Shown: one piece after another, positions 11,501 through 27,298 of the stretch | Position numbering within the stretch: the first letter of the stretch is position 1 | Layout: each line of letters opens with the position of its first letter | Assembly (NCBI GenBank): GCA_963666365.2 | Contig: CAXXNF010000002.1 | Location: 1,472,001 to 1,536,000, forward strand | From: Syntrophales bacterium | GTDB taxonomy: Bacteria; Desulfobacterota; Syntrophia; Syntrophales; UBA2210 | Direction of reading: 5' to 3' | DNA length: 64,000 nucleotides | Translations under genes and position numbers: made by a program | The notes under the pieces: model-generated | What the model saw: only the letters and a program-made list of their open reading frames with translations | Told to the model about the DNA's origin: nothing | Database searches by the model: none

Positions 11501-12977
11501 GCTGACCCGGCCCGACGCCGATGTGCACGACACCGCCCGCATCACCGCAGAACTGTATTGCATCATTGATCAGGCCTTTGAAGAAGTCTACCGGCCGGTC
11601 AGGCCCCTGTCGAAGCCGATCGACCAGAATACGGTGGCACAGAACATCGGCAGTTTCGGAAAGACATCACAACATATCGAAGACAGGCTGCAGGGGAATC
11701 AGCCCCCGTCCCCGCGCGGCCGCCAGCAGGAAGCGGTGGAAGCCGAGAGCGCGTCGGAAAATGATACGACGCCCACCGACAGCCGCCCCCAGGGACAGCA
11801 GATCAGAGAGGCATCCCACCGGACCGGCGAAAGCCAGCGCACCTATCAAAGCGCATCGCCGGGCGGCAAGCAGGAATCGGGGGATGCCGACGACGCCCAC
11901 GAAAAAACCGAGTCCGCCGGCGGCTCGATGAAGTACGACTCCACCGACAAGATAGAACGGCTCCTGCGCTCCGCCTATCGGGAACGGGGAATTACCCCGA
12001 AGGAAATCGAACGAAGGATGGAATCGCTTCATCCGAATGAGATCTATCTGTTTCTCCATAATCTGGAGGCCTCGCTCAAGAAAAAAACGGAACTGGAACG
12101 TGAGCGGGGCACCACGCTCTATGCCGAATGGGGCGATGACATCAACGAGTATCGTGCCAACTGGTCGAGAATCAGGGAACAGTTGCACAAAAGCACGACC
12201 CTCGACTTCTACCGTGACGCGACGGACCGTCACGCGGGACTTCTCAAAAAAATCAGGCGCGAATTCCAGATGTTGAAACCGGAGGGGTTCAGCAGGCTGA
12301 AACGGCAGTATGACGGTGACGAGATCGATCTGGATGCGGTGGTCGAATATCTGGTGGATCGGAAGGTGGGACTGTCACCGTCGGAAAAGAATTACACACT
12401 GATCCGCAAAAAGCGCCGTGATATCGCCGTGGCCTTTCTTATCGATATGAGCCGCAGCACCAAGGGATCCACCATTGAAAAGGAGAAGGAATCGCTCATC
12501 ATCATGTCCGAGGCCCTCCACGAAGTGGGCGATGCCTTCGCCGTGTACGGATTCTCCGGCGACAACCGCGACAACGTGGATTTTTATCTCATCAAGGATT
12601 TTGACGAACCCTACAAAGATCGCGTGAAAAAGCGGATCTGCGCCATAGAGGACCGCTTCGAAAACCGCGACGGCACGGCGATCCGCCACACCATCAACAA
12701 GCTGCGGCGACGCCCCGAACGGACGAAGATGATCATTCTTCTGAGCGACGGCAAACCGGTGGACAAGGAATACGCGGGAACCTACGCCATCGAGGACACC
12801 CGCATGGCCCTTAAGGAGGCGCAGCGCTTCGGCATCAAAACTTTCTGCATCACCGTCGACAAAAGCGCCGCCGACTACCTGCCGCGCATGTACAGTCACA
12901 GCAGCTGGACCGTCATCGACGACGTGGTGAAACTCCCCGAGAAGATCACGCGCATCTATCGGATGCTGACCACATAA
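8565..12977 (+). CDS. CbbO/NorD-like VWA protein with long N-terminal helical-repeat region
   Basis: C-terminal VWA MIDAS (DMSRST, NRDGTAIRH, LLSDGKP), YAEW and DGDEIDLDA motifs, TDG..IYLP..HQEAH. About 18 repeats of 37-42 aa at the N-terminus. Confidence 0.9.
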   Translation: MTSDTTFKDGFGRPGRGRHIDEHYEAEVIARFGETLAPLIDRFGYEGIESIGLLVGRITQEDAPAALELLEQSPAIVEALMKQGEQLVLQVYGLGNQIAPYGSRLAVTFMVVSPRIMEKGDFDTLARVAGLAAETARTDAHTARALLEQSPGLIEAIGVAGLERVARYGMALARSSWMQAVKEVEKSLSRSDALVREGGLPFAHAVYHLASKIAEINWTHAVDLIEKSPAIARSFAPFGDAAYIADMYEQAGRAVHFGSKLPLALLEETPAILDRIGKEACDALWESALVIASGAPDEAAALIQQSPHLIDRLRPHMSIARVIRIYGLGNDLATQGATIARQFVAQCAALADRLSFDDMKELQAVTARIGSQSIAAAETFLERAPDLIDRVGMEDMEKVADLAIEVSRISWETASRLLAQSPAIIERLGLEGFTTIGRFSALLSRESWTSAVHLLEKCPAVVDGLLALGGGPLITRVCDLGERIADYNARLSVSLIDRSPHIIGKIGFTGLEKLEDLAHSIGKESWTTAVSLIEESSAIIERVGFEGLEVIAAVARRISRDNHYGAVSLIEKSPDLIDRLCTFGDATQALRVYALAEKAASSSWRTAATLLEKSPLLISMIGYEGLEKLSLLITEVAERNKKISTRILDLSPAIIDKIGYEGLEAVCGLVTSLSREEWTTAMSVIEKSPDLIEKLASFGDRNVPKQTFQLAAAAAVTSRPVALRLLEKSYELINLAGIEGFGKIAAHVVTVAGEDEEKALSFLRADSIEFADFMEHIPKGLELKEVRPLLSTYLRALLGRRVEIAEADTVSTDGIKIYLPRRVKEFRENEHNFTFYKVITTHQEAHLEYGSFEFDYRRIEDCAAAVTARYGAREETEGSDVERFFALFPEPDLAADLFNMAEDFRIESRLKREYPALGKEIARMNRHGLSKRSSLKKMTNQKQRAVEMVGRTLSAGSAFDDREDPTFTAWTEAVAGAEPLTRPDADVHDTARITAELYCIIDQAFEEVYRPVRPLSKPIDQNTVAQNIGSFGKTSQHIEDRLQGNQPPSPRGRQQEAVEAESASENDTTPTDSRPQGQQIREASHRTGESQRTYQSASPGGKQESGDADDAHEKTESAGGSMKYDSTDKIERLLRSAYRERGITPKEIERRMESLHPNEIYLFLHNLEASLKKKTELERERGTTLYAEWGDDINEYRANWSRIREQLHKSTTLDFYRDATDRHAGLLKKIRREFQMLKPEGFSRLKRQYDGDEIDLDAVVEYLVDRKVGLSPSEKNYTLIRKKRRDIAVAFLIDMSRSTKGSTIEKEKESLIIMSEALHEVGDAFAVYGFSGDNRDNVDFYLIKDFDEPYKDRVKKRICAIEDRFENRDGTAIRHTINKLRRRPERTKMIILLSDGKPVDKEYAGTYAIEDTRMALKEAQRFGIKTFCITVDKSAADYLPRMYSHSSWTVIDDVVKLPEKITRIYRMLTT

Positions 12978-13062: not shown

Positions 13063-13479
13063 ATGATTACAAACTTAAAGGCACTGCATATGGACAAGAA
13101 GTCGCACAAAACAGCGCAGAGAGCAGCCATTCTGGAGTATTTACGGGGGAACACCGATCATCCGTCGGCCGCCCATATCTATGAAGCGGTTTCCAGGCAG
13201 CTCAGTGCGATATCGCTCACGACCGTATATAACACGCTGATGCATCTCGAAAGGAAGGGCCTGGTACAGGAAGTGCCTTCCTGCGGCAGTGCAGGGAAAC
13301 GATTCGATCCCAACGCGGCGCCTCACGATCATCTCATCTGCCGATCCTGCAACGCTATTTTCAATCTGGATCCTTCTCTTCGTCCGCCGATCGGCGCCGA
13401 GCATCTGCATGGATTCGATCCGAAGGATATCGTCATCACTGTGTACGGTCTCTGTCCGGACTGCAGTGGAACTGAATGA
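13063..13479 (+). CDS. Fur/PerR-family transcriptional regulator
   Basis: TAQRAAIL, HPSA, SLTTVYNTL, RFD, HDHLICRSC, GLCPDC. The start may be 13090. Confidence 0.92.
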   Translation: MITNLKALHMDKKSHKTAQRAAILEYLRGNTDHPSAAHIYEAVSRQLSAISLTTVYNTLMHLERKGLVQEVPSCGSAGKRFDPNAAPHDHLICRSCNAIFNLDPSLRPPIGAEHLHGFDPKDIVITVYGLCPDCSGTE

Positions 13480-13596
13480 TAAACAGGGAATACAGAGCCC
13501 TTATTGTATGAACAACTGCGTACCGACTGACCATTCGATCGCGTTTTTTTCTTACAGGATAGAGCAATGTGCATACCTGTATGGAGGGGGGCCCAC

Positions 13597-16500
13597 ATGA
13601 ACAGACGCCCCTTCGGCGCTGCAAGAGCCTCAGTTGTCAAGACGGACCGCACACTGTCGATTCTCTGCGGGGGAGTCGATGCAGGCGATGATGCCCCCCC
13701 GCGGCGAACGTTGAAGCCGGGCATTCTTTTCTCTCTCCTGCTGGCGCTTTCGCTTTTACTCGCCCCCGCCACCCTTCATGCCGCCTATGTCAAACGGTAC
13801 ACGACGATCGCCAACGGCGCCATGACCTTCACGGGAAACGCCCTGGGGTTGAGCAAGGCAAGCAACTCCGACCGACCGGGCACAAACGGCTCAATCGGCA
13901 CATTCAGCACTACGGACACCTCGTTACGGGACAATAGCTACTGGCCCTACGGCACAACCGACAACTGGCAGGACAATTCCTCGTCCGCTCTGCTGACTAT
14001 GCCCGGCGGAAGCACGGTCCTCTATGCGGAGCTGATATGGGGAGGAAGCTACAATTACGGCGGCAGCAACGTGAGCTCCTCCCTGAACAACGCCGTCTCA
14101 CTTACCACGCCGCTGGGCGCATTCAGTATCAGCCCCTCATCCTCGACGGCGACTACGCTTACCGGCGACTACTACTATGTCCGATCCGCCGATGTCACCA
14201 GCTACGTCAAGGGCGCCGGCGCCGGCCTGTATACCGTGGGCGGCGTCCCCGGCACTCAGGAACGTAACGAAAACAACGCCAACGCCGCAGGATGGACGCT
14301 TGCCGTGGTGTACAAGAATACCGCCCTTCCCGCGAGAAACATGACCATCTTCGTGGGAGGAGAACTGACCAGCTCCTCTCAGACCACCACATCGTCCGTA
14401 AGCGGCTTCTGCACTCCGCAGTCGGGAACAATCAACGCCCGCATGATGGTGTCGGCTATTGAAGGCGATTCTAATCTGACGGGCGACCAGATGCGGTTCG
14501 GACCATCGACGGGAACGCTTTCTGCCGTATCGGGACCCAACAATCCTATCAACAACTTTTTCTCGTCCCAGATCAACAGCGACGACGGCACGCTGGACAC
14601 ATCCGGAACCTTCGGCACCCTTAACCACACACCCGGCTCAAACAGCAGCGGTCGCCGCCAGGGCTGGGACATCACCAACGTAGACGTTTCATCGCGGATG
14701 CAGAACAGCCAGAGCACCGCCTTCGCCCGGGGCACCACGAGTGGCGATCGGTATGTCATCACCACGATCGGCCTTCAGATCGATGTGGGACAGCCTGTGT
14801 TTCCCACTGCAGTGATGACCGTCGACAAACCCGTCACCTTTGTGGGAGACACGGTAACCTACACGACAACCCTCGACAATTCTGCGGGATCCGCCGATGC
14901 GCTGAATGTGGTTTTCACCGATTCGCCGCCTCCGGGCATGTCCTTCGTCACTGGCAGCGTCACAGTCAACGGCGTGCCTCAGCCGGGTGCGAACCCCGCC
15001 CTGGGCATTCCTCTCGGCGCCATCGCCGCAGGGAGCGTCGTGACGATCTCCTATCAGAAACAGGTCGATGCCGTCCCTTTGCCGCCTGCGCCCGCCGAAT
15101 ACGCCAACAACGCAACCTGGACCTACCAGTACGAAAGCTGCCCCAGTTTTCCCCTGAATAACGGGACGCTCTCCACTGCGCCGAATGTCATCAGTGTGGT
15201 GCCGCGCCTTGAACCGACAAAATCCGCCGATCCTCCCGGCGCCGTCCTGCCCGGCGGCGCCGTCACCTACACCATTACCATCCCCAATACGGGAACGGCG
15301 CCCACAGCCGGGACGACGCTCGCCGATCCTATTCCCACAGGAACCGCCTATGTGCCGGGAAGCACCACCATGAACGGAACACCGGTGGCCGATACGGCGG
15401 GACAAATGCCCTTTGCCGCGGCGCGCCTGGTGAACAGCCCCGGAGAACCGGCGGGACAGGTCAACATTGGAGAAGCCGCCGTGATTTCTTTTCAGGTGAC
15501 CATCAACCCAGATCCGCCACTGATCATTACCAACATCGCCACCATCGATCCCGACGGCGCCGGTCCCTCGCCTGCCATCGAAGTGCCCCTGACAAACCCG
15601 CCGGTACAGGCCGACCTCGCCGTGGCCATCACCGACAACCAGACGGAAGCCGTAGCGGGAGCACCGATTGCCTACGAGGTGACCGTCACGAATAACGGGC
15701 CTGATCGGGTAATCAGTTGCAATCTTTCGGTCCCCCTGCCCGACGCGATCATCAATGCCGCCTATTCAGCGAATGCAGGCGCCTACAACAGCCAGACGGG
15801 GGCATGGACGGGATTATCCCTGAACGCCGGACAAAGCGCCGTCCTCACCGTCAGCGGAAATGTCGCTCCTTCGGCCCTTTCGCCGCTTACGGTTACCGCA
15901 ACGGTCTCGCCTTCTCCGGGCGTCCAGGATGCGGCAAGCGGCAACAACTCGGCCTCCGACACCGACACGATCCTGTACCGGGCCGATCTCGCCGTGACGA
16001 AAACGGACGGCAAGGAGAGCGTCATTCCGGGAGAAACCATCACCTACACGATTACCGTCACCAACAACGGCCCAAGCCATGTCGAAGCCGTGACCCTTGT
16101 CGACACCCTGCCGGCACTGTTTCAAAGCCCCCTCTTCAATCCATCGGAGGGGGTCTACAACGAGGAAACGGGCCTCTGGTCCGGAATATCGCTTGAACCG
16201 GGAAGCAGCGTCACCCTCTCCCTGACGGGTATGGTGGATGAATCGCTCACAGGCGACCTTGTCAATACCGTCACCGTCACGCCGCCCGAGGACGTCGTCG
16301 ACCCGGAGAACGGCAATAACACGGCCGTCGACACGAATACGAGCAGCCCGCTTATGTCGCTTCATAAATATGTCGATCGGACGAACGCCGCGCCGGGCGA
16401 AAGTCTGCTTTACACGGTCCACTACCGTAATATCGGAGGAAGCCTGGCACAAAACGTTATTATTATAGATACCATCCCGCCCTACACACGCTATAAAGCG

Positions 16501-16701
16501 GGAACCCTCAAACGAGGTACGGCCAATTCCACCTACGGCGATCCCGCCAACCTGACCTTTACCGATGCAGTCGACGGCGACAAGGGCGAGGTGAGCGGCG
16601 CCAGCATTATTTTCAAGATCGATACCGTAGCGGCAAATGACGGCGCCGACGGCACCGGCGCCGATGAGGGAAAGGTGTATTTCGAGGTGATAATCGATTG
16701 A
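13597..16701 (+). CDS. Secreted multi-DUF11 surface protein with N-terminal beta-rich adhesin-like domain
   Basis: GGAGG RBS before ATG 13597; signal peptide (..LLLAPATLHA); repeated L-x-x-x-K..PG..TYTITVTNNGP..D.LP domains; ends FEVIID. Confidence 0.85.
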   Translation: MNRRPFGAARASVVKTDRTLSILCGGVDAGDDAPPRRTLKPGILFSLLLALSLLLAPATLHAAYVKRYTTIANGAMTFTGNALGLSKASNSDRPGTNGSIGTFSTTDTSLRDNSYWPYGTTDNWQDNSSSALLTMPGGSTVLYAELIWGGSYNYGGSNVSSSLNNAVSLTTPLGAFSISPSSSTATTLTGDYYYVRSADVTSYVKGAGAGLYTVGGVPGTQERNENNANAAGWTLAVVYKNTALPARNMTIFVGGELTSSSQTTTSSVSGFCTPQSGTINARMMVSAIEGDSNLTGDQMRFGPSTGTLSAVSGPNNPINNFFSSQINSDDGTLDTSGTFGTLNHTPGSNSSGRRQGWDITNVDVSSRMQNSQSTAFARGTTSGDRYVITTIGLQIDVGQPVFPTAVMTVDKPVTFVGDTVTYTTTLDNSAGSADALNVVFTDSPPPGMSFVTGSVTVNGVPQPGANPALGIPLGAIAAGSVVTISYQKQVDAVPLPPAPAEYANNATWTYQYESCPSFPLNNGTLSTAPNVISVVPRLEPTKSADPPGAVLPGGAVTYTITIPNTGTAPTAGTTLADPIPTGTAYVPGSTTMNGTPVADTAGQMPFAAARLVNSPGEPAGQVNIGEAAVISFQVTINPDPPLIITNIATIDPDGAGPSPAIEVPLTNPPVQADLAVAITDNQTEAVAGAPIAYEVTVTNNGPDRVISCNLSVPLPDAIINAAYSANAGAYNSQTGAWTGLSLNAGQSAVLTVSGNVAPSALSPLTVTATVSPSPGVQDAASGNNSASDTDTILYRADLAVTKTDGKESVIPGETITYTITVTNNGPSHVEAVTLVDTLPALFQSPLFNPSEGVYNEETGLWSGISLEPGSSVTLSLTGMVDESLTGDLVNTVTVTPPEDVVDPENGNNTAVDTNTSSPLMSLHKYVDRTNAAPGESLLYTVHYRNIGGSLAQNVIIIDTIPPYTRYKAGTLKRGTANSTYGDPANLTFTDAVDGDKGEVSGASIIFKIDTVAANDGADGTGADEGKVYFEVIID

Positions 16702-16717
16702 GCAAGGGGTGTAATGC

Positions 16718-17236
16718 ATGAATACCACAAATTTATTTCCAAGAGCGGCGCTCCTCTGCGCGTCTTTTCTCCTGTGCTTCCTTTCGGGAAGTCCTGCCTG
16801 GTCACAGGACGAAGCCAGGCTCGTTCTGAAGACGGAAGCAGCCAAGGAGATCAGGGTGAAAGAAGGAGCTGTCTGGGTCGTAAAGTACGAGCCGGTAACC
16901 GTGACAAAGCCGGGGGACATCCTGCGGTATACGGTTGCCTATCACAACGAGGGAAACGCTCCGGCAGTGGGCGCCCGTATCGTGGATCCGGTCCCGAAAG
17001 GAACCGTCTATATCATGGGAAGCGCCGCCGGCGCCGGGACGGCGATCCGATTCAGCATCGACGGCGGGGCGACCTGGCAGGCGCCCCCGGTGATGCATGT
17101 GGTGCGGAAACCCGACGGAAGCGAGAAAAAAGAGCCGGCCCCGCCGGAACTCTTCACCCATATCAGGTGGTCCCTGACGGGAGAGGTGCCCGCCGGCGGT
17201 TCCGGCAGTGTGCATTTCAAGGTCACCGTGCAGTAA
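16718..17236 (+). CDS. Small secreted single-DUF11-like protein
   Basis: Signal peptide (..SPAWS); KPGDILRYTVAYHNEG..IVDPVPKGTVYI; ends HFKVTVQ. Confidence 0.85.
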   Translation: MNTTNLFPRAALLCASFLLCFLSGSPAWSQDEARLVLKTEAAKEIRVKEGAVWVVKYEPVTVTKPGDILRYTVAYHNEGNAPAVGARIVDPVPKGTVYIMGSAAGAGTAIRFSIDGGATWQAPPVMHVVRKPDGSEKKEPAPPELFTHIRWSLTGEVPAGGSGSVHFKVTVQ

Positions 17237-17308
17237 AAGGTGGAAATCGTATGAGATTTCCATTGGATATACATTAGTTAACATTACATGAAGGGGAGGT
17301 AACAAGTC

Positions 17309-19057
17309 ATGCGTAGAATTCTCTTAACCATGGTTGTTGTTGCAGCGGCCCTCACACTGTGCTGGTCACAGGCGGAGGCCGCGGGAACTCCGGTCAACAC
17401 ATCCATCACCAACCAGGCCTATGCCGATTACAAGGACGCCAACGGCAACGACCGGCCGCGGGTCACCTCGAACACGGTCACCACCGTGGTCAGCCAGGTG
17501 GCCTCCGTCTCGAGTACTCCGGCGACGGCCTCACACAACGGCATCGCAGGCACCGATGTGGAATATCCGGCGGAGATCTGCAATAAGGGGAACGGGTCAG
17601 ACACGATCACCCTGGCAGCGGTAAACGACCAGGGATGGACTGTCACGATCTATCCCGATCTCAACGGAAACGGCGTGTGGGATTCGGGCACCGAAGGCAC
17701 GCCTGTGGCAAATACGGGATCGCTGGCCGCCGATCAGTGCTATAAAGTGATCGTAATGGTGTCCGTACCGGCAGGGACGGCAAACGGGACCATCGGCACG
17801 ACCACGCTCACCGCCACATCCACCTATAACGGTACCGTATCCGACACGTCCGTCTTTACGACTAACGCCCAGTCGGCGGTGCTCACACTTATAAAATCGG
17901 GCACGCCGGCCAATCCGAAACCGGGCGATACCATTACCTACGCGATCACCGGCAGCAACAGCGGCGGCACCGCTTACAGCGTCCGCGTCATCGACGCCAT
18001 TCCCGCCAACACCACCTACGTGACGGGGAGTATGAAGGCCGGTCCCGTGGGGGGCGAGTACGCCACTGCCTATGCAATGACGGATGCGAACGATTCGGAA
18101 AATCTGACCTACACGGTGGGGGCCGACACGGCGATCGCCAATGCCTACTATGATTCGGGCGCAACACAGATTCAGCTCGACTGGTCCCAGTGCCCTCCGG
18201 CGGGGGTCTTCTACTTCCAGGTAAAGGTAAACAGCGACGTCGCCTCGGGGACGGGCATCACCAATACGGCCACGGCCTCTTACGGCCTGCTCGACAACGG
18301 ACTGCGCCCCTACACCGAATCGACCAACGGCGCCACAGTCACCGTGGCCACCCTGCCGGGTGTTGATCTCTATTCCGACGGAACCGGCACGGGCGATCCC
18401 GGCGACCAGATGGTCTACCCCTTTACCGTCAAAAATACAGGAAACGCCACCGACACCTTCGATTTCACCTACACCTCGTCGGCGGGGTGGACCTGGGTTA
18501 TCTGGCGGGATGTGGACGGCAACGGCATTCCCGGCACCGATGGCGATGTTGCCGTCACCGATTCGGGCGATCTGGCTGCCGGGGCAACGGGGTCGTTCCT
18601 GGCCGTCGCCACCATACCGGCCGGCCAGGCTGACGGGACCGTCGACACCGTGGTCGTTACCGGTAAATCCCGCATCGACACGGGCGTAAGCGACACGGCC
18701 ACCTTCGCCACCACCGTCACGGCGCCGGTGCTGACCATCACCAAGACCGTGTCCCCCACGGGGAATCAGCCTCCGGGGACGGTGCTCACCTACCAGGCGA
18801 CGGTCACGAATGTCGGCACGGGCGTGGCTACAAGCATCATCATTGCCGACATGGTGCCCCAGTACACCACCTATGTGGCGGGCTCCATCAAAACAGGGGG
18901 CACGGCAGGCTCGCTTGTCGCACGGACCGACGCCTCCGACGGCGACGGCGGCCGCTACGACGCGGGGACCAACGCCGTCACGGCGGGAGGAGCGGGCGTG
19001 CTGAGCCTGGGGGCCGGCGGCACCTGGGTGCTGGAGTTCAAGGTGACCATCGACTAA
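17309..19057 (+). CDS. Secreted DUF11-repeat protein (candidate major filament subunit)
   Basis: Strong GGGGAGG RBS; signal peptide AEA|A; DUF11 and related Ig-like domains; ends FKVTID. Confidence 0.88.
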   Translation: MRRILLTMVVVAAALTLCWSQAEAAGTPVNTSITNQAYADYKDANGNDRPRVTSNTVTTVVSQVASVSSTPATASHNGIAGTDVEYPAEICNKGNGSDTITLAAVNDQGWTVTIYPDLNGNGVWDSGTEGTPVANTGSLAADQCYKVIVMVSVPAGTANGTIGTTTLTATSTYNGTVSDTSVFTTNAQSAVLTLIKSGTPANPKPGDTITYAITGSNSGGTAYSVRVIDAIPANTTYVTGSMKAGPVGGEYATAYAMTDANDSENLTYTVGADTAIANAYYDSGATQIQLDWSQCPPAGVFYFQVKVNSDVASGTGITNTATASYGLLDNGLRPYTESTNGATVTVATLPGVDLYSDGTGTGDPGDQMVYPFTVKNTGNATDTFDFTYTSSAGWTWVIWRDVDGNGIPGTDGDVAVTDSGDLAAGATGSFLAVATIPAGQADGTVDTVVVTGKSRIDTGVSDTATFATTVTAPVLTITKTVSPTGNQPPGTVLTYQATVTNVGTGVATSIIIADMVPQYTTYVAGSIKTGGTAGSLVARTDASDGDGGRYDAGTNAVTAGGAGVLSLGAGGTWVLEFKVTID

Positions 19058-19090
19058 GGGGCCGACAAGGCCGGTGAGAGAGAAGACGCT

Positions 19091-22000
19091 GTGACGAAGA
19101 AGATGCGGCGGAATACTACGCATTTTGTCCTTTACTGGTGCATACTGATGGTGTGCCTGTGGCACGCCTGCACCGGAGGGACACCTGCGTACGCCGCATC
19201 GCCTCCCGTCGGCACCGCCATCACGAACCGCGCCACCGTCGCGTACCACGACGCCAACGGGAACCTGCTGCCCGAGGCAAGCGCCACCGTGTCCACCATC
19301 GTTTCCGGCGCACCGGTGCTTGCCGTCACGAAAACTGCAAGCGCCGATATCGTCAGCGCCGGCGATTTACTGACCTACACCATCACCTGTGAAAACAGGG
19401 GGAATGCCGACGCCCTTTCGACGGTCGTCGTCGATCATCTGCCCGCGGAAGTGATTTTCCTCAGCGCATCGACCGGCGGCGCCTACAGCTCAGGACCGCC
19501 GGCAGGCGGCAGCGTCGCATGGAATCCGGGAACCCTCGCGGCCGGTGAACGCATTTCCCTCTGGGTCGAGGTACGGGTAAAGGCGGGTCTCGCCGTCGGT
19601 ACGATGATAGACAATACCGCCGACATCACCTCGGCCGAGGGCGCATCGGCGGCGGCGGCACAGTCCGCACGCGTGGGGTTCGCACCGAATCTTTCCATCA
19701 CAAAATCCGCTGTACAGGGCACGGTCACACCGGGAGGGACAATCACCTATACCATCGACTACAAAAACAGCGGGAATCAGACCGCATCCTTCGTTTCCAT
19801 CGGCGACACGCTTCCCGCCGGTACCACCTATGTTGACGGTTCTTCCACGGCAGACGTCACGGTCAAGGGCGGTCTGCTCTCATGGTCCATCGGATCGATA
19901 CCGGCCGGTGTGCAGGGGTCGGTCACTTTTCAGGTAACGATATCACCGGCGGCCTCTGAAGGCGACATGGTGCGGAACACGGCCGCGCTGACCAGCAAGG
20001 AAGGGGGCACCATTTCGTCAAATACGGTCGCCACCGCCGTGGTCGCATCTCCTCCGCTGATTGTGGCTAAAACGGGAGTCCCCGATCCGGTGCGGGCAGG
20101 AGATACCATTACCTATACCATCGTGGTGACAAACGGCGCGTCGACTCCCGTGACGGGACTTCTCATCACCGATCCACTGCCGGCACATACCGCCTTCGTC
20201 AGCGCCGACGCGGGAGGCGTCCTCAGCGGCGACAGCGTCGTCTGGTCCGCGGGAACACTCGCGGGAGGGGCGTCAACGACGGTCAGACTGGTGGTGCAGG
20301 CGCTGCCGTTCAGCGATCCCAATCCCGTCATTGCCAACAGGGTCTCGGCAGCGGCCAACGAGGCGCTTCTGCAGACGGCCTCGACCACGACCTCCGTCAT
20401 CTGCCGCACTCCGGCGGCGATACGCTTTCTTGATGCAGCATCGACGCCCACGAACCGGTATTCCGTGGGTGACATGATCTGCATGGAAGTGTCCGATCCC
20501 GATCAGAACCGCGATCCCCTCACGGCGGAGACGGTCACGGTCCGCATCACGACATCCGGCACCGGCGACGCGGAAACGATCATCCTCACGGAAACAGACA
20601 TCAATACGGGCGTATTCCACTCATGTCTGCCTTCCGATACCGGACCCACCGTTCAGCAGAACGGCATCCTCACCGTAGCTTCCGACATCACCGTCACGGT
20701 AGCCTACGAAGATCCGCTGGATGCCCTCTGCGGATACCAGGCGGAATCGACGGCCGATGTCCTGATCGACCCCTTCGGCGTCGTCTTCAATTCCATCACC
20801 GGGCTTCCCGTGGCCGACGCCACGGTCACCCTGATTGACGATGCCACGGGACTGGCGGCGGCGCTTCCGCTCAACCCGAAAACCGGCGCAGTTCAGCCCA
20901 ACCCGGTGGTCACAAAGGCGGACGGCGCCTTCCAGTTTGAATACGTCAGCCCGGGAACCTATCATTTTACCGTCGGCACGCCTGCAGGCTACCTGTGGCC
21001 CTCGGCCGTGCCCAATACGGAGCTGCGCCTGTCCTGGCCCGCTTTCGTCATCGACGACAACGGCTCCAAGGGTGAATCCTTCACCCTGACCGCCGCCTCT
21101 CCGCCGCTCAACATCGATCTGCCCCTGGATCCTCCCGGCGGATCCTTCGTGGTTGAAAAAACGGCGGACAAGAGCGCTGCATCCGTAGGCGATCTGGTAC
21201 AGTACACGGTGACGGTCTCGAACAACGGCGCCTCTCCTATCGGATCGATTGCCGTCCATGATGCCATGCCGCACGGCGTTCGGTATCTGAACGGCTCATC
21301 GCGCCTCGGCGGGGTGAAGATCGCCGACCCGGTTCCCACCGCCGGAAGAACGGTCATATGGAACATTCCCGCACTTGCACCGGGGGATGCGGCGGCGATT
21401 ACCTTCAGGGCCCTTGTCGGTCCCGACAGTCATCGGGGCACGGGACGAAATACGGCATGGGCCTCGGGAACGACCGTGGGCGCCGCGGTGTCTTCCAGCA
21501 TTGCCACCCACGACCTGAAAATCACCGAGGGGGTATTCACCTCCAGGGCGATCATCATCGGCAAGGTCTTTATCGACAGCGACGGAAACGGCCTTCAGAC
21601 AAACGACGCGGTCAGCGCCGAAACGACATCCGGCGGCGGCGCCACAGAACAATGCCATAACGAACCGGGCATTCCCGGCGTGGTCCTCTACCTGGAAGAC
21701 GGCACCCGGGTGATCACGGATCAGCACGGCAAATTCTCCATCCCGGGCGTTGCGCCGGGCACGCACGTTCTGCGGGTCGATACATCGTCACTGCCGGAAG
21801 GGGTCGAGCTTACGGCCTCATCGGGAAGATCCATGGGAGACGGCACGTCGCAGTTTATCTCTATAGGCTACGGCAGTCTCTTTAAAGCGAATTTCACGGC
21901 CCGCATGCGGGAGGGAACAGATTTCACCGCACTGCGGATTCAAAAACAGACGATCCTGAAGCCGGACCGCCCAACGGGCGCATCGGGCCGTTCCGGCGCC

Positions 22001-22294
22001 CCGGCTTCGATCACGCAGGCGCCGGAGCCCGTCGAAACAGGGACGGTTCTTACCGACACGCCGGCGGCCGCCGGCGCGAAGGCGGTGCATTCGGAAGAGA
22101 GTCCCGCTCCTCACACCACACCTCCCCTTGAGGAGCGCATTCTCACCATGTCGAAGGAACTCGCCTTCGTCAGCCCCGTCGACGGCGCTATCATCGCCGG
22201 CGATTCCACCGCCGTGGTGATCAAGGCGCCGGCAGGATCGACGCCCGCCCTTTCCGTCAACGGGCGCACCATCGGCAATGATAAAATCGGTTAA
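19091..22294 (+). CDS. N-terminal part of a large DUF11/SdrD-B-like outer-membrane protein (frameshifted from the next ORF)
   Basis: Signal peptide AYA|A; four DUF11 domains; DPFGVVFNSITG and IIGKVFIDSDGNG..GIPGVVLYLEDG..TDQHGKFS motifs; stop at 22294 falls mid-domain. Confidence 0.8.
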   Translation: MTKKMRRNTTHFVLYWCILMVCLWHACTGGTPAYAASPPVGTAITNRATVAYHDANGNLLPEASATVSTIVSGAPVLAVTKTASADIVSAGDLLTYTITCENRGNADALSTVVVDHLPAEVIFLSASTGGAYSSGPPAGGSVAWNPGTLAAGERISLWVEVRVKAGLAVGTMIDNTADITSAEGASAAAAQSARVGFAPNLSITKSAVQGTVTPGGTITYTIDYKNSGNQTASFVSIGDTLPAGTTYVDGSSTADVTVKGGLLSWSIGSIPAGVQGSVTFQVTISPAASEGDMVRNTAALTSKEGGTISSNTVATAVVASPPLIVAKTGVPDPVRAGDTITYTIVVTNGASTPVTGLLITDPLPAHTAFVSADAGGVLSGDSVVWSAGTLAGGASTTVRLVVQALPFSDPNPVIANRVSAAANEALLQTASTTTSVICRTPAAIRFLDAASTPTNRYSVGDMICMEVSDPDQNRDPLTAETVTVRITTSGTGDAETIILTETDINTGVFHSCLPSDTGPTVQQNGILTVASDITVTVAYEDPLDALCGYQAESTADVLIDPFGVVFNSITGLPVADATVTLIDDATGLAAALPLNPKTGAVQPNPVVTKADGAFQFEYVSPGTYHFTVGTPAGYLWPSAVPNTELRLSWPAFVIDDNGSKGESFTLTAASPPLNIDLPLDPPGGSFVVEKTADKSAASVGDLVQYTVTVSNNGASPIGSIAVHDAMPHGVRYLNGSSRLGGVKIADPVPTAGRTVIWNIPALAPGDAAAITFRALVGPDSHRGTGRNTAWASGTTVGAAVSSSIATHDLKITEGVFTSRAIIIGKVFIDSDGNGLQTNDAVSAETTSGGGATEQCHNEPGIPGVVLYLEDGTRVITDQHGKFSIPGVAPGTHVLRVDTSSLPEGVELTASSGRSMGDGTSQFISIGYGSLFKANFTARMREGTDFTALRIQKQTILKPDRPTGASGRSGAPASITQAPEPVETGTVLTDTPAAAGAKAVHSEESPAPHTTPPLEERILTMSKELAFVSPVDGAIIAGDSTAVVIKAPAGSTPALSVNGRTIGNDKIG

Positions 22295-25220
22295 AACGGT
22301 GACCCATAGTAAAGGAAAGGTTGCCCTCTTCGAATACATAGGGGTGCCTCTCGATCCCGGCGCTCCCAATGTGCTGACCGTCTCCGTGACGGATCCCTTC
22401 GGGAACAGGCGAGGCAGCGCGTCCGTCACCGTCGAGACCGTCGGCGAGGCGGATCGCATTCTTCTGTCGGCGGATCGCGAAGAGGCGCCCGCCGACGGTA
22501 ATGCGACGATTGAGGTCACCGTCTCAATCGTCGACCGGAAAGGGCATCCCGTCCCCTACGCGGCGCCGGTCACGGTAATCGTCACCCCGGGAGAAATCAT
22601 TACCGAAGACGCCGATCCTTCGACAGAGGAAGTGCAGATTGCCTGCACAAAAGGAACCGCCCGATTTAGCGTTCGGGCACCCCGCACCTCCGGCGAAGGG
22701 AACATCAATGTCTACGCCGATGCGCTGGAAGGAAGAATGAATGTCTTCTTCTTCCCCTACCTGCGCGACCTCTTTGCCGTCGGTATCGGAGAAATCACCA
22801 TCGGCCACGGCTCGACACGAGGCGATTTCGGCTACCTCAAAGACGGCAAGTGGTTCGATGATGATCTCTACGGCGGCGCCCGGGGCGCCTTCTTCCTGAA
22901 GGGAAACATTTATAAGGACTATCTGCTCACCGCCTCCTTCGATTCAGAAAAGGAAGAGGAGGACGAACTCTTCCGCCAGTCCGACACCGACATTGAGTCT
23001 GAGGACAAGTATCCTATTTACGGGGACGAGAGCACCCTGGGCTATGAAGCTATGTCGAAGGACAAGCTCTACGTCAAGGTGGAAAAAGGTCGGTCGTCGC
23101 TGCTCTACGGCGATTATCAGACGAATCTCAACGACACGGCGCTCGCCTCATACCAGCGATCGTTCAATGGACTGAAGCTCGACCTCAACACGGATCGCTT
23201 CAAACTGCGCGCCTTCGGCAGCGAAACCGATCAGACCCAGGTCGTGGACGCCCTGCCGGGACGCGGCATTTCGGGATATTATTATCTAACCCACCGGCCG
23301 GTCATCTCCGGGTCGGAACGGGTCGTCATCGAGGTGCGGGACCGGCTGCGCCCCGACCGCGTCCTCTCCCGCGAAACCCGTGCACGCGGCAGCGACTACG
23401 ACATCGATTACGATGCAGGAACCATTCTGTTCAAGGAACCGATCCCCATACGGGACAGCGACTACAACCCCGTCTATGTCACAATCAGCTATGAAGCGGA
23501 AACGGGGGGAGAAGACTATTACATTTACGGCGGGCGAGGCGCCTTCAAGGTTCTGCCCTGGCTCGAAGTGGGCGCCACAGGCATCGTGGAAGAGCAGGCC
23601 GCCGGCGATTATACGCTTTTCGGCGGAGACGTCACGTTGACGCTTCCGGGCAATACGACGGTAAAGGCCGAATACGCCGAAACGCGGGCACTGTTCGACA
23701 TATCGAATGCCATGGTAAGGAAATCCGGCGGCGGCTGGTCCTTTGAGCTCGAATCATCGCCGATAGACCGGCTTGTCCTGTCCGGCTACTATAAGAATCT
23801 GGACGACTATTTCCAGAACATCTCCGCCACCGATGCACCGCGGGGCGTCGAAAAATACGGATTCGACGGCCGCTTTGCACTGACCGACCGCATCGAATTG
23901 AAGGGAACCTTCTTTGATGAAAAGGACAAACTGAATCATTCAAGCCACAGTTATGCCTCACTGGGAGCCCAGGCCCGGCTGGGGAAAACAAAAATCACCG
24001 CGGAACTTTCAAGGGAAACCTCCGACGATCAGTACATACCGGCCACGAGCGATTCGACGAGAAGCCCCTTCGACATGAGCGAGGAATCGCCGCGTGAACT
24101 CACGGCCGCCGGCGTCGCCCTTGAAACGGAGCTTCGCCCGAACCTGTCCCTTACCGTGGGGCACAAGCGCAACATAAAGGACGAAAACCTCCACACCTCC
24201 CAGGTAGGGCTCAACTATCAGATCAGCGAGCTCAATCGCCTCTATGTGAGGGAGGAGTACCAGAAGTACAGTGAACGGACCGAGCTGAGAACCCTCTTCG
24301 GCGTGGAATCGAAGGTCATCAAAAACACCGTCGCCTTCAATGAATACCGCCTGGTGGACGGATCGGACAGTTCCCGCAATCAGCAGGCCATCGGCCTTCG
24401 GAACAAATTCCTCCTGGCCGATCATCTGACGGGAAACCTTTCCGTCGAATACCTGAGCACCCTCTCGGGAGAGGCGAAGGAGAGCGAACCGGACGCCTTT
24501 GCCCTGGCCACGGGACTGGAATATCTCCCCCGGGATGATTTCAAGGTAACGGGACGTTTCGAACACAGAAACGAACTCTCCGGCGACGGCATCGACAGCT
24601 ATCTGGGCGAATTAGGGCTTCTGCTGAAAATCACGCCCAGCTACTCGCTGCTGGCCAAGGAACGGTTTTTTTATGAAACAAGCGGCATAACGGGCGCCCA
24701 CACCAGCTCACGCACCATGGTGGGACTTGCCTGGCGGCCCCTCTGCGACGACCGGTTCAACGGCCTTGCGAAAGCGGAATACAAGGTCGACGACAACGGC
24801 ACGATTGATCCGGATTATAAAACCACGGCCTTCATTCTATCTACAGAAGGTGTCTACCAGGTAAACAGCCGGCTCCAGCTTTCGGCCAAATACGCGGGGA
24901 AACTGTCGCGCGACAGCGAGTATTCCTCCTACACGGACCTCCTTTCGGCACGGATCATCTACGACGTGACGGACCGCATCGACCTCGGGGCCGAGTACAG
25001 AGTGCTGACAAGCCATAAAATCGGAAGCACCCTTCAGGGAGGAAATCTGGAAGTCGGCTATCGGGTGGTCAAGAACCTCTGGGTCTCCCTGGGCTATTCC
25101 TTCGACGACTTCGATGCCGATCTCATCGGCGACGACTACCAGGGAAGAGGGCCCTATGTAAAACTCCGCTTCAAGTTCAGCGAAGACTCCATAAAAAACC
25201 TCTTCAAAAAGAAAAAATGA
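22278..25220 (+). CDS. C-terminal part: Ig-like domain plus large outer-membrane beta-barrel-like region
   Basis: No signal peptide; long run of alternating amphipathic strands; ends ..YVKLRFKFSE..; continues the upstream ORF in another frame. Confidence 0.75.
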   Translation: MIKSVKTVTHSKGKVALFEYIGVPLDPGAPNVLTVSVTDPFGNRRGSASVTVETVGEADRILLSADREEAPADGNATIEVTVSIVDRKGHPVPYAAPVTVIVTPGEIITEDADPSTEEVQIACTKGTARFSVRAPRTSGEGNINVYADALEGRMNVFFFPYLRDLFAVGIGEITIGHGSTRGDFGYLKDGKWFDDDLYGGARGAFFLKGNIYKDYLLTASFDSEKEEEDELFRQSDTDIESEDKYPIYGDESTLGYEAMSKDKLYVKVEKGRSSLLYGDYQTNLNDTALASYQRSFNGLKLDLNTDRFKLRAFGSETDQTQVVDALPGRGISGYYYLTHRPVISGSERVVIEVRDRLRPDRVLSRETRARGSDYDIDYDAGTILFKEPIPIRDSDYNPVYVTISYEAETGGEDYYIYGGRGAFKVLPWLEVGATGIVEEQAAGDYTLFGGDVTLTLPGNTTVKAEYAETRALFDISNAMVRKSGGGWSFELESSPIDRLVLSGYYKNLDDYFQNISATDAPRGVEKYGFDGRFALTDRIELKGTFFDEKDKLNHSSHSYASLGAQARLGKTKITAELSRETSDDQYIPATSDSTRSPFDMSEESPRELTAAGVALETELRPNLSLTVGHKRNIKDENLHTSQVGLNYQISELNRLYVREEYQKYSERTELRTLFGVESKVIKNTVAFNEYRLVDGSDSSRNQQAIGLRNKFLLADHLTGNLSVEYLSTLSGEAKESEPDAFALATGLEYLPRDDFKVTGRFEHRNELSGDGIDSYLGELGLLLKITPSYSLLAKERFFYETSGITGAHTSSRTMVGLAWRPLCDDRFNGLAKAEYKVDDNGTIDPDYKTTAFILSTEGVYQVNSRLQLSAKYAGKLSRDSEYSSYTDLLSARIIYDVTDRIDLGAEYRVLTSHKIGSTLQGGNLEVGYRVVKNLWVSLGYSFDDFDADLIGDDYQGRGPYVKLRFKFSEDSIKNLFKKKK

Positions 25221-25377: not shown

Positions 25378-25710
25378 ATGCGAAAACGGTTGTTCCTTCT
25401 CTTTGCGGTGATCGCTCTGTTGCCGGCCGGTCTCTCCCAGGGGCGGCTCGCCTTGGAACCCTGCAGCGCTTACGCGGACCTGAACTGCGCGGTCTGTGAG
25501 TGGGTGATGGCCGAGGTGGACAAGTGCCCAGGGGCGACCAGGGAACAGATCGCGCAGTGCCTCGACCGCTCCTGCGCCTTCCTCCCGTACAGCGTCAGGA
25601 CCCTCTGCGATTCCTTCGTGAAGACCAAGGGCCCGCAGTGCGTGGACCTCCTGGTCGCGAAGGTCCCACCGGAACAGATCTGCACCTCGGTGGGCTCCTG
25701 CACCAAATAG
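25378..25710 (+). CDS. Secreted saposin-B-like (SAPLIP-fold) protein
   Basis: AAGGAG RBS; signal peptide; Cys pattern C37xxC40...C66xxLP...C77xxFV...PxxIC102xxxGxC108 matches the saposin six-cysteine signature. Confidence 0.75.
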   Translation: MRKRLFLLFAVIALLPAGLSQGRLALEPCSAYADLNCAVCEWVMAEVDKCPGATREQIAQCLDRSCAFLPYSVRTLCDSFVKTKGPQCVDLLVAKVPPEQICTSVGSCTK

Positions 25711-25818: not shown

Positions 25819-26418
25819 ATGCCGAAGGATCATGCCACCCTGATGCACGAAATGCGGGATTACGCCTCGCCGAAGGCGCGTCTGACGCGGATGATCAAGT
25901 CGGGCGAGCTAATCCAGGTGCGCAGGGGGATATTTCTGGAGAAAAAAGAAACAGGATATTCCCTCAAAAGTCTCGCGTCAATCATCTACGGCCCCTCCTA
26001 TATCTCCTTTGAATACGCCCTGGGCCATTACAGGCTGATCCCGGAACGGGTTCAGGCCGTCACCTCGGCGGTGTACAACAAAAACAAGAATCGCCGCTTC
26101 CATACTCCCCTGGGCGATTTTTACTACTATTATCTTCCGGCTAAGGTCTTCCCCTATGGTGTCGTCCTGGGAGAGGAAAACGGCCAGCGCTATCTGATGG
26201 CCACGCCGGAAAAGGCGCTTTGCGACAGTCTCTACAAAACGCGGGGCATCGGCAGCGTGAAGGCCCTCAAGGCTCTGTTCTTTGAGGACTGGCGAATGGA
26301 ACGAGAGGCTGTCCTTTCCCTGGACCGGGAGAGCATTCTTTTTTTGGCCCCCCTGTACAGAAAGCAGATTTTCCCGCTGCTTCTGAATTGGTTGGAGGAC
26401 GAGGCGAATGATGCATAG
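25819..26418 (+). CDS. abiEi: Type IV toxin-antitoxin antitoxin, AbiEi family
   Basis: IYGPSYISFEYALGHYRLIPE and ATPEKALCD; overlaps the downstream toxin gene. Confidence 0.85.
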   Translation: MPKDHATLMHEMRDYASPKARLTRMIKSGELIQVRRGIFLEKKETGYSLKSLASIIYGPSYISFEYALGHYRLIPERVQAVTSAVYNKNKNRRFHTPLGDFYYYYLPAKVFPYGVVLGEENGQRYLMATPEKALCDSLYKTRGIGSVKALKALFFEDWRMEREAVLSLDRESILFLAPLYRKQIFPLLLNWLEDEANDA

Positions 26419-27298
26419 CGCACTGCAGGACATGCTCAAGGCCTACGATTGCCGCACGGCGGATGACTACCGCCACGCGCTCAATGAAACCGTCCAGGAA
26501 ATCGCTCTATTAGGGCTTTATCGCGGAGGTTTTTTCACCAAAGCGGCCTTCTACGGTGAAACGGCCCTCCGCATTTTCTACGGCCTCGATCGTTTTTCAG
26601 AAGACCTGGATTTTTCGTTGCTGAAAAGCGACCCGTCCTTTGATCTGTCCTCCTTTACACAGGTGTTGCAGGATGAACTGGGCGCTTACGGTCTGGAGAT
26701 GACGGTTCAGAAAAAGATCAAACGCAACGATTCTCCCGTTCAATCGGCCTTCATCAAAGGAGGCACGCAAATGCATCTGCTGACGATCGCATCGGTTCAA
26801 CCGCCCGTGTCCGGCATCAACCCCAAGGAACAACTCCGGATCAAGTGTGAAGTGGATACCGAACCACCAGGCGGCGCAACCTTCGAAATGAAATATCAAC
26901 TGCGCCCGGTGCCTTATTCTGTGCGCCTTTACTCGCCCTCATCGCTTTTCGCCGGGAAAGTCCACGCACTGCTCTGCCGGTCGTGGAAAAGGAGGGTCAA
27001 GGGACGCGACTTTTACGATTATGTCTGGTTTTTGTCCCGATCGATTCCGGTGAGCCTCGCTCATCTGGCGGAGCGGATGAGGCAGACGGGACACCTTTCA
27101 GCCAATGCGGTCCTCAGTGAAGAGGCCCTCAGGGATTGTTTGAGAAAACGCTTTGCAGTCGTTGATTTCGATCAGGTGCGAAAAGACGTGCTGCCCTTCA
27201 TCAAAAATGCCGAGGCCGTCCATCTCTGGTCGGCAGATTTTTTCTCTCGGATTACGGATGAACACCTTCACACCGAAGGGGCCAAAGCCGATGTCTGA
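26408..27298 (+). CDS. abiEii: Type IV toxin-antitoxin nucleotidyltransferase toxin, AbiEii/AbiGii family
   Basis: AAFYGETALRIFYGLDRFSEDLDFS, LFAGKVHA, RVKGRDFYD. Confidence 0.9.
   Translation: MMHSALQDMLKAYDCRTADDYRHALNETVQEIALLGLYRGGFFTKAAFYGETALRIFYGLDRFSEDLDFSLLKSDPSFDLSSFTQVLQDELGAYGLEMTVQKKIKRNDSPVQSAFIKGGTQMHLLTIASVQPPVSGINPKEQLRIKCEVDTEPPGGATFEMKYQLRPVPYSVRLYSPSSLFAGKVHALLCRSWKRRVKGRDFYDYVWFLSRSIPVSLAHLAERMRQTGHLSANAVLSEEALRDCLRKRFAVVDFDQVRKDVLPFIKNAEAVHLWSADFFSRITDEHLHTEGAKADV

Follow-up and report, generated by a model that had tools for sequence, protein, structure and literature searches.

The computational data presented in this study suggest that a four-gene cassette in a Syntrophales bacterium encodes a surface fibre whose subunits are joined through a protein domain that is divided between neighbouring polypeptides. 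The cassette lies in a window of 64,000 nucleotides (positions 1,472,001 to 1,536,000 of contig CAXXNF010000002.1, assembly GCA_963666365.2; all coordinates below count from the first base of this window), where five open reading frames (ORFs) on the + strand occupy 13.6-25.2 kb with gaps of 16, 72 and 33 bases. Gene A (13597-16701; 1034 amino acids (aa) counted from 13597, in an ORF that opens at 13567) encodes the putative tip protein, gene B (16718-17236; 172 aa) a small secreted protein and gene C (17309-19057; 582 aa) the putative shaft subunit. Gene D, the putative base, is present as two ORFs, D1 (19091-22294; 1067 aa) and D2 (22278-25220; 980 aa). Each subunit has a last domain that lacks its final Asn-bearing strands, carries those strands at its own start, or does both. 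In our preferred reading, to which we assign a probability of about 0.7, the products form a donor-strand-complemented fibre of split DUF11 (CLIPPER) domains, with Lys-Asn isopeptide bonds as its lock, an outer-membrane anchor, a tip/shaft/base polarity and protein B as a non-covalent holder.

The split domain and its conservation

The domains in question belong to the DUF11 family. At the Pfam cut-off of 24.6 bits for DUF11 (PF01345), proteins A (219.8 bits, 9.1e-66), C (43.9) and D1 (214) score above threshold, while B falls just below it (23.4) and is above the cut-off of TIGR01451 (37.5 versus 24). The model TIGR04226, "isopeptide-forming domain-containing fimbrial protein" (cut-off 30), recognises D1 (63.4) and A (44.4), with C below at 27.3. 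According to the available part of PMC12617251, DUF11 has recently been renamed CLIPPER and its crystal structure, 9IFR, contains an intramolecular Lys-Asp-Asn isopeptide. The profile of the shaft protein aligns with 9IFR over the strands that bear the Lys and the Asp. A sequence search of the PDB with C alone gave 0 matches, and a Foldseek search with the whole shaft model returned generic immunoglobulin (Ig)-domain arrays only.

Signal peptides are visible in the sequences of all four proteins, and the order of what follows differs from one protein to the next. Protein A continues with an N-terminal region of about 340 aa (no Pfam family matched its N-terminal 344 aa), then four DUF11 domains that are complete and a last one that is truncated, and it is acceptor-only. 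Protein B has a single truncated DUF11 domain. In C the signal peptide is followed by a donor segment and four DUF11-like domains, the last of which is truncated. D1 also begins with a donor segment after its signal peptide, followed by four complete DUF11 domains and CarboxypepD_reg/SdrD_B-like domains, and has no truncated domain. A preliminary description of this DNA had claimed that three of the proteins stop directly after a strand of the form F-x-V-x-I and that two start with exactly the strands that are then missing, and its motifs and coordinates all proved correct when the window sequence was checked again. FEVIID ends at 16698 in A (stop codon 16699-16701), FKVTVQ is the end of B (stop at 17236) and FKVTID the end of C (stop at 19057). 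The two starts are AGTPVNTSITNQ, from 17381 (residue 25 of C), and ASPPVGTAITNR, from 19196 (residue 36 of D1). The truncated acceptor domains thus defined comprise residues 924-1034 of A (16366-16698, + strand, with Lys924 at 16366 and Asp958 at 16468) and residues 472-582 of C (18722-19054, + strand, with Lys479 at 18743 and Asp514 at 18848). The donor segments comprise residues 25-64 of C (17381-17500, + strand, with Asn35 at 17411-17413) and residues 36 to about 75 of D1 (19196-19315, + strand, with Asn46 at 19226).

The point of truncation was located with a hidden Markov model (HMM) profile of 114 positions, built from 34 complete DUF11 domains in 22 proteins of this and five related genomes. 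Complete domains extend to profile position 110-114, whereas the final domain in C and in B goes no further than 83-84: residues 475-582 of C correspond to positions 1-84, residues 58-172 of B to positions 7-84, and four C or B proteins of the relatives to positions 6/9-83/84. For the tip proteins the local HMM alignment halts early at an insertion, and direct alignment places their end on the same F-x-V-x-I strand. The F-x-V-x-I-D ends were also considered as a C-terminal beta-signal or sorting motif, which was rejected because the same strand occurs within complete domains.

The donor segment corresponds to the missing part. When a donor profile of 40 columns from 118 homologues was compared by hhalign with a 158-column profile made from the complete domain inside the shaft protein, it aligned to the last 39 columns (120-158) with a probability of 96.4%, an expectation value (E) of 1.4e-9 and a score of 48.1. 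Thirty column shuffles of the profile scored 7.9-15.7 and none of the 30 reached the observed value. In this alignment the donor Asn35 falls on Asn319 of the intact internal domain.

Both ends of the split are conserved. A search with the shaft protein gave 408 homologues at E<=1e-5 among 8000 scored, and among the 120 listed the donor motif is found within the first 120 residues in 120 and the truncated end in 118. The two exceptions are broken genes, one a 399-aa fragment and the other a protein with a divergent tail. An alignment was made of the window protein and 97 matches that are 42-90% identical to it, leaving out an identical entry, near-duplicates and the two broken proteins. Asn35, Lys479 and Asp514 are invariant in all 98 of these sequences, and no other part of the shaft protein is as well conserved as the N-terminal segment. 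In the internal domain of C the Lys-Asp-Asn triad is present within one domain (Asp229 invariant, Lys196 and Asn319 in at least 90% of the 98 rows), whereas the last domains of A and C have no triad Asn of their own. Among the tip proteins, 28/28 have both the acceptor Lys and the acceptor Asp. The triad residues are therefore invariant in shafts and tips at the places where a bond between molecules would need them.

The survey of gene neighbourhoods proposed in the preliminary description showed that the donor/acceptor polarity is kept in homologous operons. Whole-genome searches found the same gene order in five relatives, where the base is a single ORF of 2030-2371 aa. A further 27 related loci were taken from a collection of species-representative genomes that was searched with an 18-row alignment. 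The shaft protein has a donor match in 26 of these, a small B-like gene lies just upstream in 25, and 24 have at least one tip-like gene with a truncated end and no donor, which is downstream of the base in two. A barrel-bearing base is directly downstream in 20 loci; the remaining 7 have a contig end there, or an ORF that is cut short or disrupted. No donor-HMM match was found in the tip-like proteins of the loci. When the window ORFs between 3 and 36 kb were compared by BLAST with 24 of the loci (three short ones were left out), A, B, C and D1 were present in 24/24 and D2 in 21/24, while no other ORF of this region was present in more than 8/24, and those few were antisense shadow ORFs. The cassette therefore consists of four genes, with no dedicated chaperone, usher, sortase or secretin conserved beside them.

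Genomes with the shaft protein numbered 7 among 61 relatives (E<=1e-20) and 3 among 401 drawn evenly from the phylum (E<=1e-40), the source genome being counted both times. The nearest named records are metagenome bins labelled Syntrophales, and the names of the matching records include Syntrophales, Smithella, Syntrophorhabdaceae, Desulfobacteraceae, Desulfuromonadales, Lentisphaerae/Oligosphaeraceae and Latescibacteria; one shaft homologue carries the name Desulfatibacillum aliphaticivorans. Given these genome counts and the variety of record names, the cassette is sporadic but widely spread. The tips look like exchangeable modules, with lengths of 477 to 1376 aa. The acceptor-only tip-like genes downstream of the base are at 17669-20668 in locus L024 and 17900-19648 in locus L038, and locus L031 has two tip genes in a row.

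Assembly between or within chains

The preliminary description had proposed a two-chain structure model of the shaft as a check. Residues 468-582 of C were modelled with residues 25-190 of C, both chains with a custom alignment of the same rows. The interface score ipSAE (interaction prediction score from aligned errors) was 0.87, 0.88 and 0.87, and the best of three controls reached 0.15; the ipSAE mark used for judging is reached by 116 of 157 solved complexes and by 2 of 215 mismatched pairs. The runs had at least 97% of contacts in common, and the predicted local distance difference test (pLDDT) of the partner was at least 91. In the predicted interface, donor residues 25-64 lie against acceptor residues 471-481, 484-499 and 505-520, with donor residues 37-42 beside 507-513, and the interface lists include residues 35, 479 and 514. 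The N-terminal segment of the shaft is thus predicted to fit into the C-terminal domain of a second copy, well above the controls. Those of the proposed checks that were run all came out in favour, and the overall interpretation is supported.

From the sequences and this model we infer that the subunits assemble in trans in the cell. All four proteins would be exported by Sec. The C-terminal acceptor of the tip, or of the previous shaft subunit, would take up the N-terminal segment of the next shaft subunit and the fold would close, setting the donor Asn35 beside Lys479 and Asp514, where an isopeptide would form autocatalytically. Because the Asn-bearing strands sit on the next subunit, the bond that is intradomain in CLIPPER would then form between chains. 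The product would be an ordered polymer with a variable, adhesin-like, acceptor-only tip, many shaft copies that are both donor and acceptor, and one donor-only base, whose N-terminal segment would close the last acceptor and tie the chain to a giant outer-membrane barrel, giving the fibre its predicted location at the cell surface. Protein B, for which the triad appears dispensable, would either hold free donor segments reversibly as a chaperone or act as a removable or minimal cap.

Several observations weigh against this reading. The base gene is frame-broken in this assembly, and the system might be dead here. A donor-HMM match is present in 91 of 120 base homologues, which leaves 29 without one, some of them cut at the N-terminus and others distant proteins in which Ser or His replaces the Asn. 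In the B family both Lys and Asp are present in only 10 of 26 proteins, and 16 lack one or the other. The single donor segments of C and D match the in-house 114-position HMM weakly (positions 80-111, independent E 0.2-0.6), and the match of the donor segment to a mixed DUF11 alignment is also weak (columns 82-94, probability 1.8%, E 0.028). The complex model may pass because its pieces resemble intact, solved Ig-like isopeptide domains, and the use of the same alignment rows for both chains makes co-variation blind to the difference between cis and trans. An AlphaFold2 (AF2) monomer of C (mean pLDDT 87.5, predicted template modelling score 0.58) has a weak hinge at residues 186-192 and donor strands 31-61 at pLDDT 92-93, as might be expected if these strands docked in cis.

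The most probable of the alternatives is a donor-strand fibre with a non-covalent link, in which Lys, Asp and Asn would do no more than stabilise the fold or form hydrogen bonds. It would account for the distant base homologues that keep the strand pattern with Ser or His at the position of the donor Asn, and for the B family members that often lack Lys or Asp. Oligomers of the Clostridium perfringens protein BsaA are also stable in sodium dodecyl sulfate even without their intermolecular bond, as described in the available part of PMC11580942. However, the triad is invariant in 98/98 shafts down to 42% identity, Lys and Asp are both kept in 28/28 tips, and the homologous triad does form a bond in the intact domain of 9IFR. 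We therefore consider a purely non-covalent fibre unlikely.

A circular permutation, in which C completes itself in cis as a closed four-domain monomer and the proteins are separate adhesins, appears less probable again. The confident N-terminal strands and low-confidence hinge of the monomer model agree with it, and co-variation does not distinguish cis from trans, but the rest of the cassette does not agree. A and B have no donor and D has no truncated domain, so these proteins cannot complete themselves and their conserved ends can be closed only between chains; completion of C in cis would leave them partnerless. In trans, moreover, domain 4 with its donor would precede domain 1 just as domain 2 precedes domain 3 within the chain, so that the polymer would be one regular string of domains. 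These points argue against the circular permutation that the preliminary description had itself named as a refutation. Slightly less probable still is a set of independent fibrillar adhesins and an outer-membrane protein. The N-terminal segment would then direct sorting or secretion, and the shortened C-terminal domains would be variants that are stable as they are. In favour of this, many DUF11 proteins act as fibrillar adhesins made of one chain (PMC12617251, available part) and the cassette has no dedicated export gene, but hhalign finds the segment homologous to exactly the missing strands, the same truncation point recurs in three protein families and the complex model passes its controls.

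Base protein, small protein and neighbouring genes

The preliminary description had treated 19091-25220 as a donor-only base fused to a barrel. The donor and the barrel were both found, and the base is a single ORF in relatives, but in this window it consists of two ORFs in different frames. Residues 5-1067 of D1 and 6-976 of D2 align end-to-end to residues 2-1059 and 1060-2030 of a single 2030-aa protein of a relative. The window therefore carries a one-base frame break, with one surplus base near 22290-22293, in the overlap of D1 and D2 (22278-22294, + strand). Two independent contigs from a public sequencing run that contains 98% of the sampled words end and begin exactly at 22291/22292, and no contig of the run spans the site; another run gave no contig over the stretch. 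This suggests that the break arose where the assembly was joined or lies at a site that varies, and is not an established pseudogene mutation. Programmed frameshifting at 22291 was also considered and was rejected by inference, as there is no recognised slippery motif, the ORF is uninterrupted in relatives and the contigs break there.

D2 begins with two Ig-like domains (residues 1-160; 22278-22757, + strand), which are Big_1/invasin-like, followed by a large beta-barrel region of about 800 residues (residues ~164-967; 22767-25178, + strand). An AF2 prediction of D2, built from a 37-row alignment (pLDDT 79.4), shows both Ig-like domains, after which some 36-40 long strands occupy residues 166-967. 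A Foldseek search with this model found large outer-membrane barrels at a template modelling score of about 0.2 (Deinococcus SlpA, LptD, MtrB and FimD). VIA-align placed the FimD usher first among the barrels, with a Z score of 17.0 and a root-mean-square deviation of 8.2 Å over 338 aligned residues, a weak fold likeness; PapC scored 13.6 and other barrels at most 14.1. No sequence match of the base protein to the usher family (PF00577) was found in Pfam or PDB searches, and Pfam showed no autotransporter or intimin barrel family in the cassette proteins, the nearest being a weak BBP2 match below the cut-off (E 0.0022). The domain arrangement of type V secretion, a 12-strand barrel family domain next to its passenger, was not found either.

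Among the homologues of D2 are 211 long proteins (1716-4900 aa) that match it at E<=1e-10. Distant ones, at 31-36% identity, add an OmpA-like C-terminal domain (OmpA_C) of the peptidoglycan-binding type, and one, from Geomonas, is named OmpA family protein. The prediction of a barrel-anchored base is thus supported by the large beta-barrel at the end of D and by the OmpA-like peptidoglycan-binding domain of its distant relatives. In the distant branch with the OmpA-like C-terminus (P0209-P0238), several members, the Geomonas entry for example, have Ser or His for the donor Asn, and this branch may be a non-covalent version of the same assembly. Within the barrel region, 23265-23468 (D2 residues ~330-397) encodes a very conserved small beta-rich insert whose position recalls the plug of an usher; its family-consensus motifs include GISGYYYL, RDR and ILFK.PVP.

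Passage of the subunits tip-first through the base protein's own barrel, in the manner of an usher, is possible but weakly supported; it would fit the polarity and the lack of other conserved genes. A broader proposal, which we hold only tentatively and regard as doubtful, is that the cassette represents a separate class of diderm pilus, a split-CLIPPER assembly line akin to the chaperone-usher one and locked by autocatalytic Lys-Asn bonds, in which the giant, usher-like barrel of the base would pass the fibre tip-first and then end assembly as it threads and anchors its own passenger, with B as a periplasmic "reverse chaperone" that holds donors instead of acceptor grooves.

When 1.84 billion representatives were searched with B, giant multi-DUF11 proteins crowded out other matches, and of the 150 listed only 7 are at most 320 aa long. 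The statistics for B therefore rest on 26 B-type proteins from the loci, one masked fragment having been dropped. The canonical Lys is present in 15/26 and the Asp in 18/26 (Asn in 7, Thr in 1), while five residues later a pair of Lys and Glu is nearly always retained (24/26 and 25/26). The preliminary description had made B, which is acceptor-only, a cap or chaperone. Because the triad is not conserved (both residues in 10/26), B is more likely a non-covalent cap or chaperone than a covalent subunit, judging from the sequences. B proteins also have an extra hairpin-like insert after the first strand, and their near-invariant Lys-Glu pair has no counterpart in ordinary DUF11 domains. One 319-aa protein (P0262) matches B over two stretches and is possibly a tandem version of B.

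Several neighbouring genes were noted. Directly upstream of the cassette on the same strand is a Fur-family regulator gene (13063-13479; PF01475, 2.3e-22), which is present in 5 of 24 related loci. Before it, 8565-12977 encodes a 1470-aa protein with many helical repeats of about 35 residues (LLE.SP.II.R.G.EG...) and a C-terminal VWA domain (PF00092, 9.1e-11). Downstream of the cassette, 25378-25710 encodes a small secreted protein of 110 aa that is saposin-like (SapB_2, 28.2 bits versus a cut-off of 21), which is unusual for bacteria. An AbiEi-like antitoxin and an AbiEii nucleotidyltransferase toxin (PF08843, 2.5e-25) form a pair at 25819-27298, and 27392-29935 (- strand) encodes an 847-aa secreted surface protein with Kelch repeats, an InlB B-repeat-like domain and a PKD domain.

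Comparison with known systems

If the proposed assembly is correct, outer-membrane bacteria have a covalent pilus that requires no sortase, separate chaperone-usher pair or ATP, and a further assembly principle is added to the pilus classes. It would explain the widespread proteins annotated without function as "DUF11 domain-containing" or "isopeptide-forming fimbrial" in Syntrophales, Desulfobacterales, Lentisphaerota and others. The fibres could matter for the aggregation of syntrophic anaerobes with their partner organisms.

The closest parallel in polarity is with the chaperone-usher pili (type 1 and P pili, with ushers FimD and PapC), which likewise have an N-terminal donor strand, an acceptor-only tip and a donor-only terminal subunit. 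In the cassette an incomplete Ig fold would also be completed by the next subunit, as the logic of the sequences and the model suggest, although the fold family differs. The cassette would donate two to four strands, not one, and a covalent lock is predicted. Its last subunit is fused to a barrel, and the barrel region of about 800 residues is far larger than an usher pore. A PapD-like chaperone family was not matched by Pfam in A, B, C, D1 or D2, and no further conserved gene was found in the 24 loci.

Sortase pili (RrgB for example; TIGR04226) resemble the cassette in their Ig-like pilins, Lys-Asn isopeptides and tip/shaft/base logic, and in their covalent links between subunits, which for the cassette are predicted. 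In these pili a sortase joins the threonine of an LPXTG motif to a pilin-motif lysine between subunits. Proteins A, B and C, whose last residues are F-x-V-x-I/V-D/Q, lack both an LPXTG motif and a membrane anchor, and since no other gene is conserved beside the cassette, it has no conserved sortase gene. SpyTag/SpyCatcher are man-made splits of CnaB domains in which a peptide carries one reactive residue, the catcher carries the others and the bond forms spontaneously. The cassette would be a natural version of this trick, a split of a CnaA-like domain that is used for polymerisation, and it could supply orthogonal natural tag/catcher pairs with a defined order (tip, shaft, base) for protein engineering.

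CLIPPER proteins themselves belong to the same domain family and have the same Lys-Asp-Asn triad (9IFR; PMC12617251, available part), and the complete internal domains of the cassette look like ordinary members. The difference is that in CLIPPER the bond lies within one domain of one long chain, whereas in the cassette the last domain is split over two polypeptides and the bond would join subunits. The available text of PMC12617251 does not mention a split form, the word "split" occurring 0 times in it. Other DUF11 filaments are described as giant single chains (10.1101/2025.08.19.671072) and donor-strand filaments are known from other families (PMC11821415), both from the parts of these sources that were available. 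No description of a split DUF11/CLIPPER polymer was found in the full-text literature covered, a body that excludes most subscription journals and supplements.

The combination of donor-strand complementation with a spontaneous intermolecular isopeptide is already known from two systems, both with unrelated folds and in cells without an outer membrane, as far as the available portions of PMC9715654 and PMC11580942 go. For the Sulfolobus acidocaldarius thread, Saci_0406, a spontaneous intermolecular isopeptide from Asn57 to the N-terminal amine of subunit n+2 has been proposed (PMC9715654). The thread likewise combines head-to-tail donor-strand complementation with an isopeptide and has a putative cap gene next door, but it is archaeal, differs in fold and family, and has no outer membrane and no barrel. 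In C. perfringens, BsaA of the TasA family assembles by "donor-strand exchange and lock", with an Asn-Glu-Lys intermolecular isopeptide whose mutants lose oligomers (PMC11580942). As in the proposed fibre, an N-terminal segment inserts into the sheet of the neighbour and a triad bond then forms between chains. BsaA differs in coming from a Gram-positive organism and in having a TasA/camelysin-like fold, a SipW signal peptidase and one subunit type. In the cassette, Pfam matched neither a TasA-like fold nor a SipW-type signal peptidase and no extra gene is conserved, so that it would work in a similar way without being a member of that family. In addition, the BsaA donor, in the account available, is not a split copy of a domain that is also intact in the same protein, whereas the donor of the cassette's shaft subunit is.

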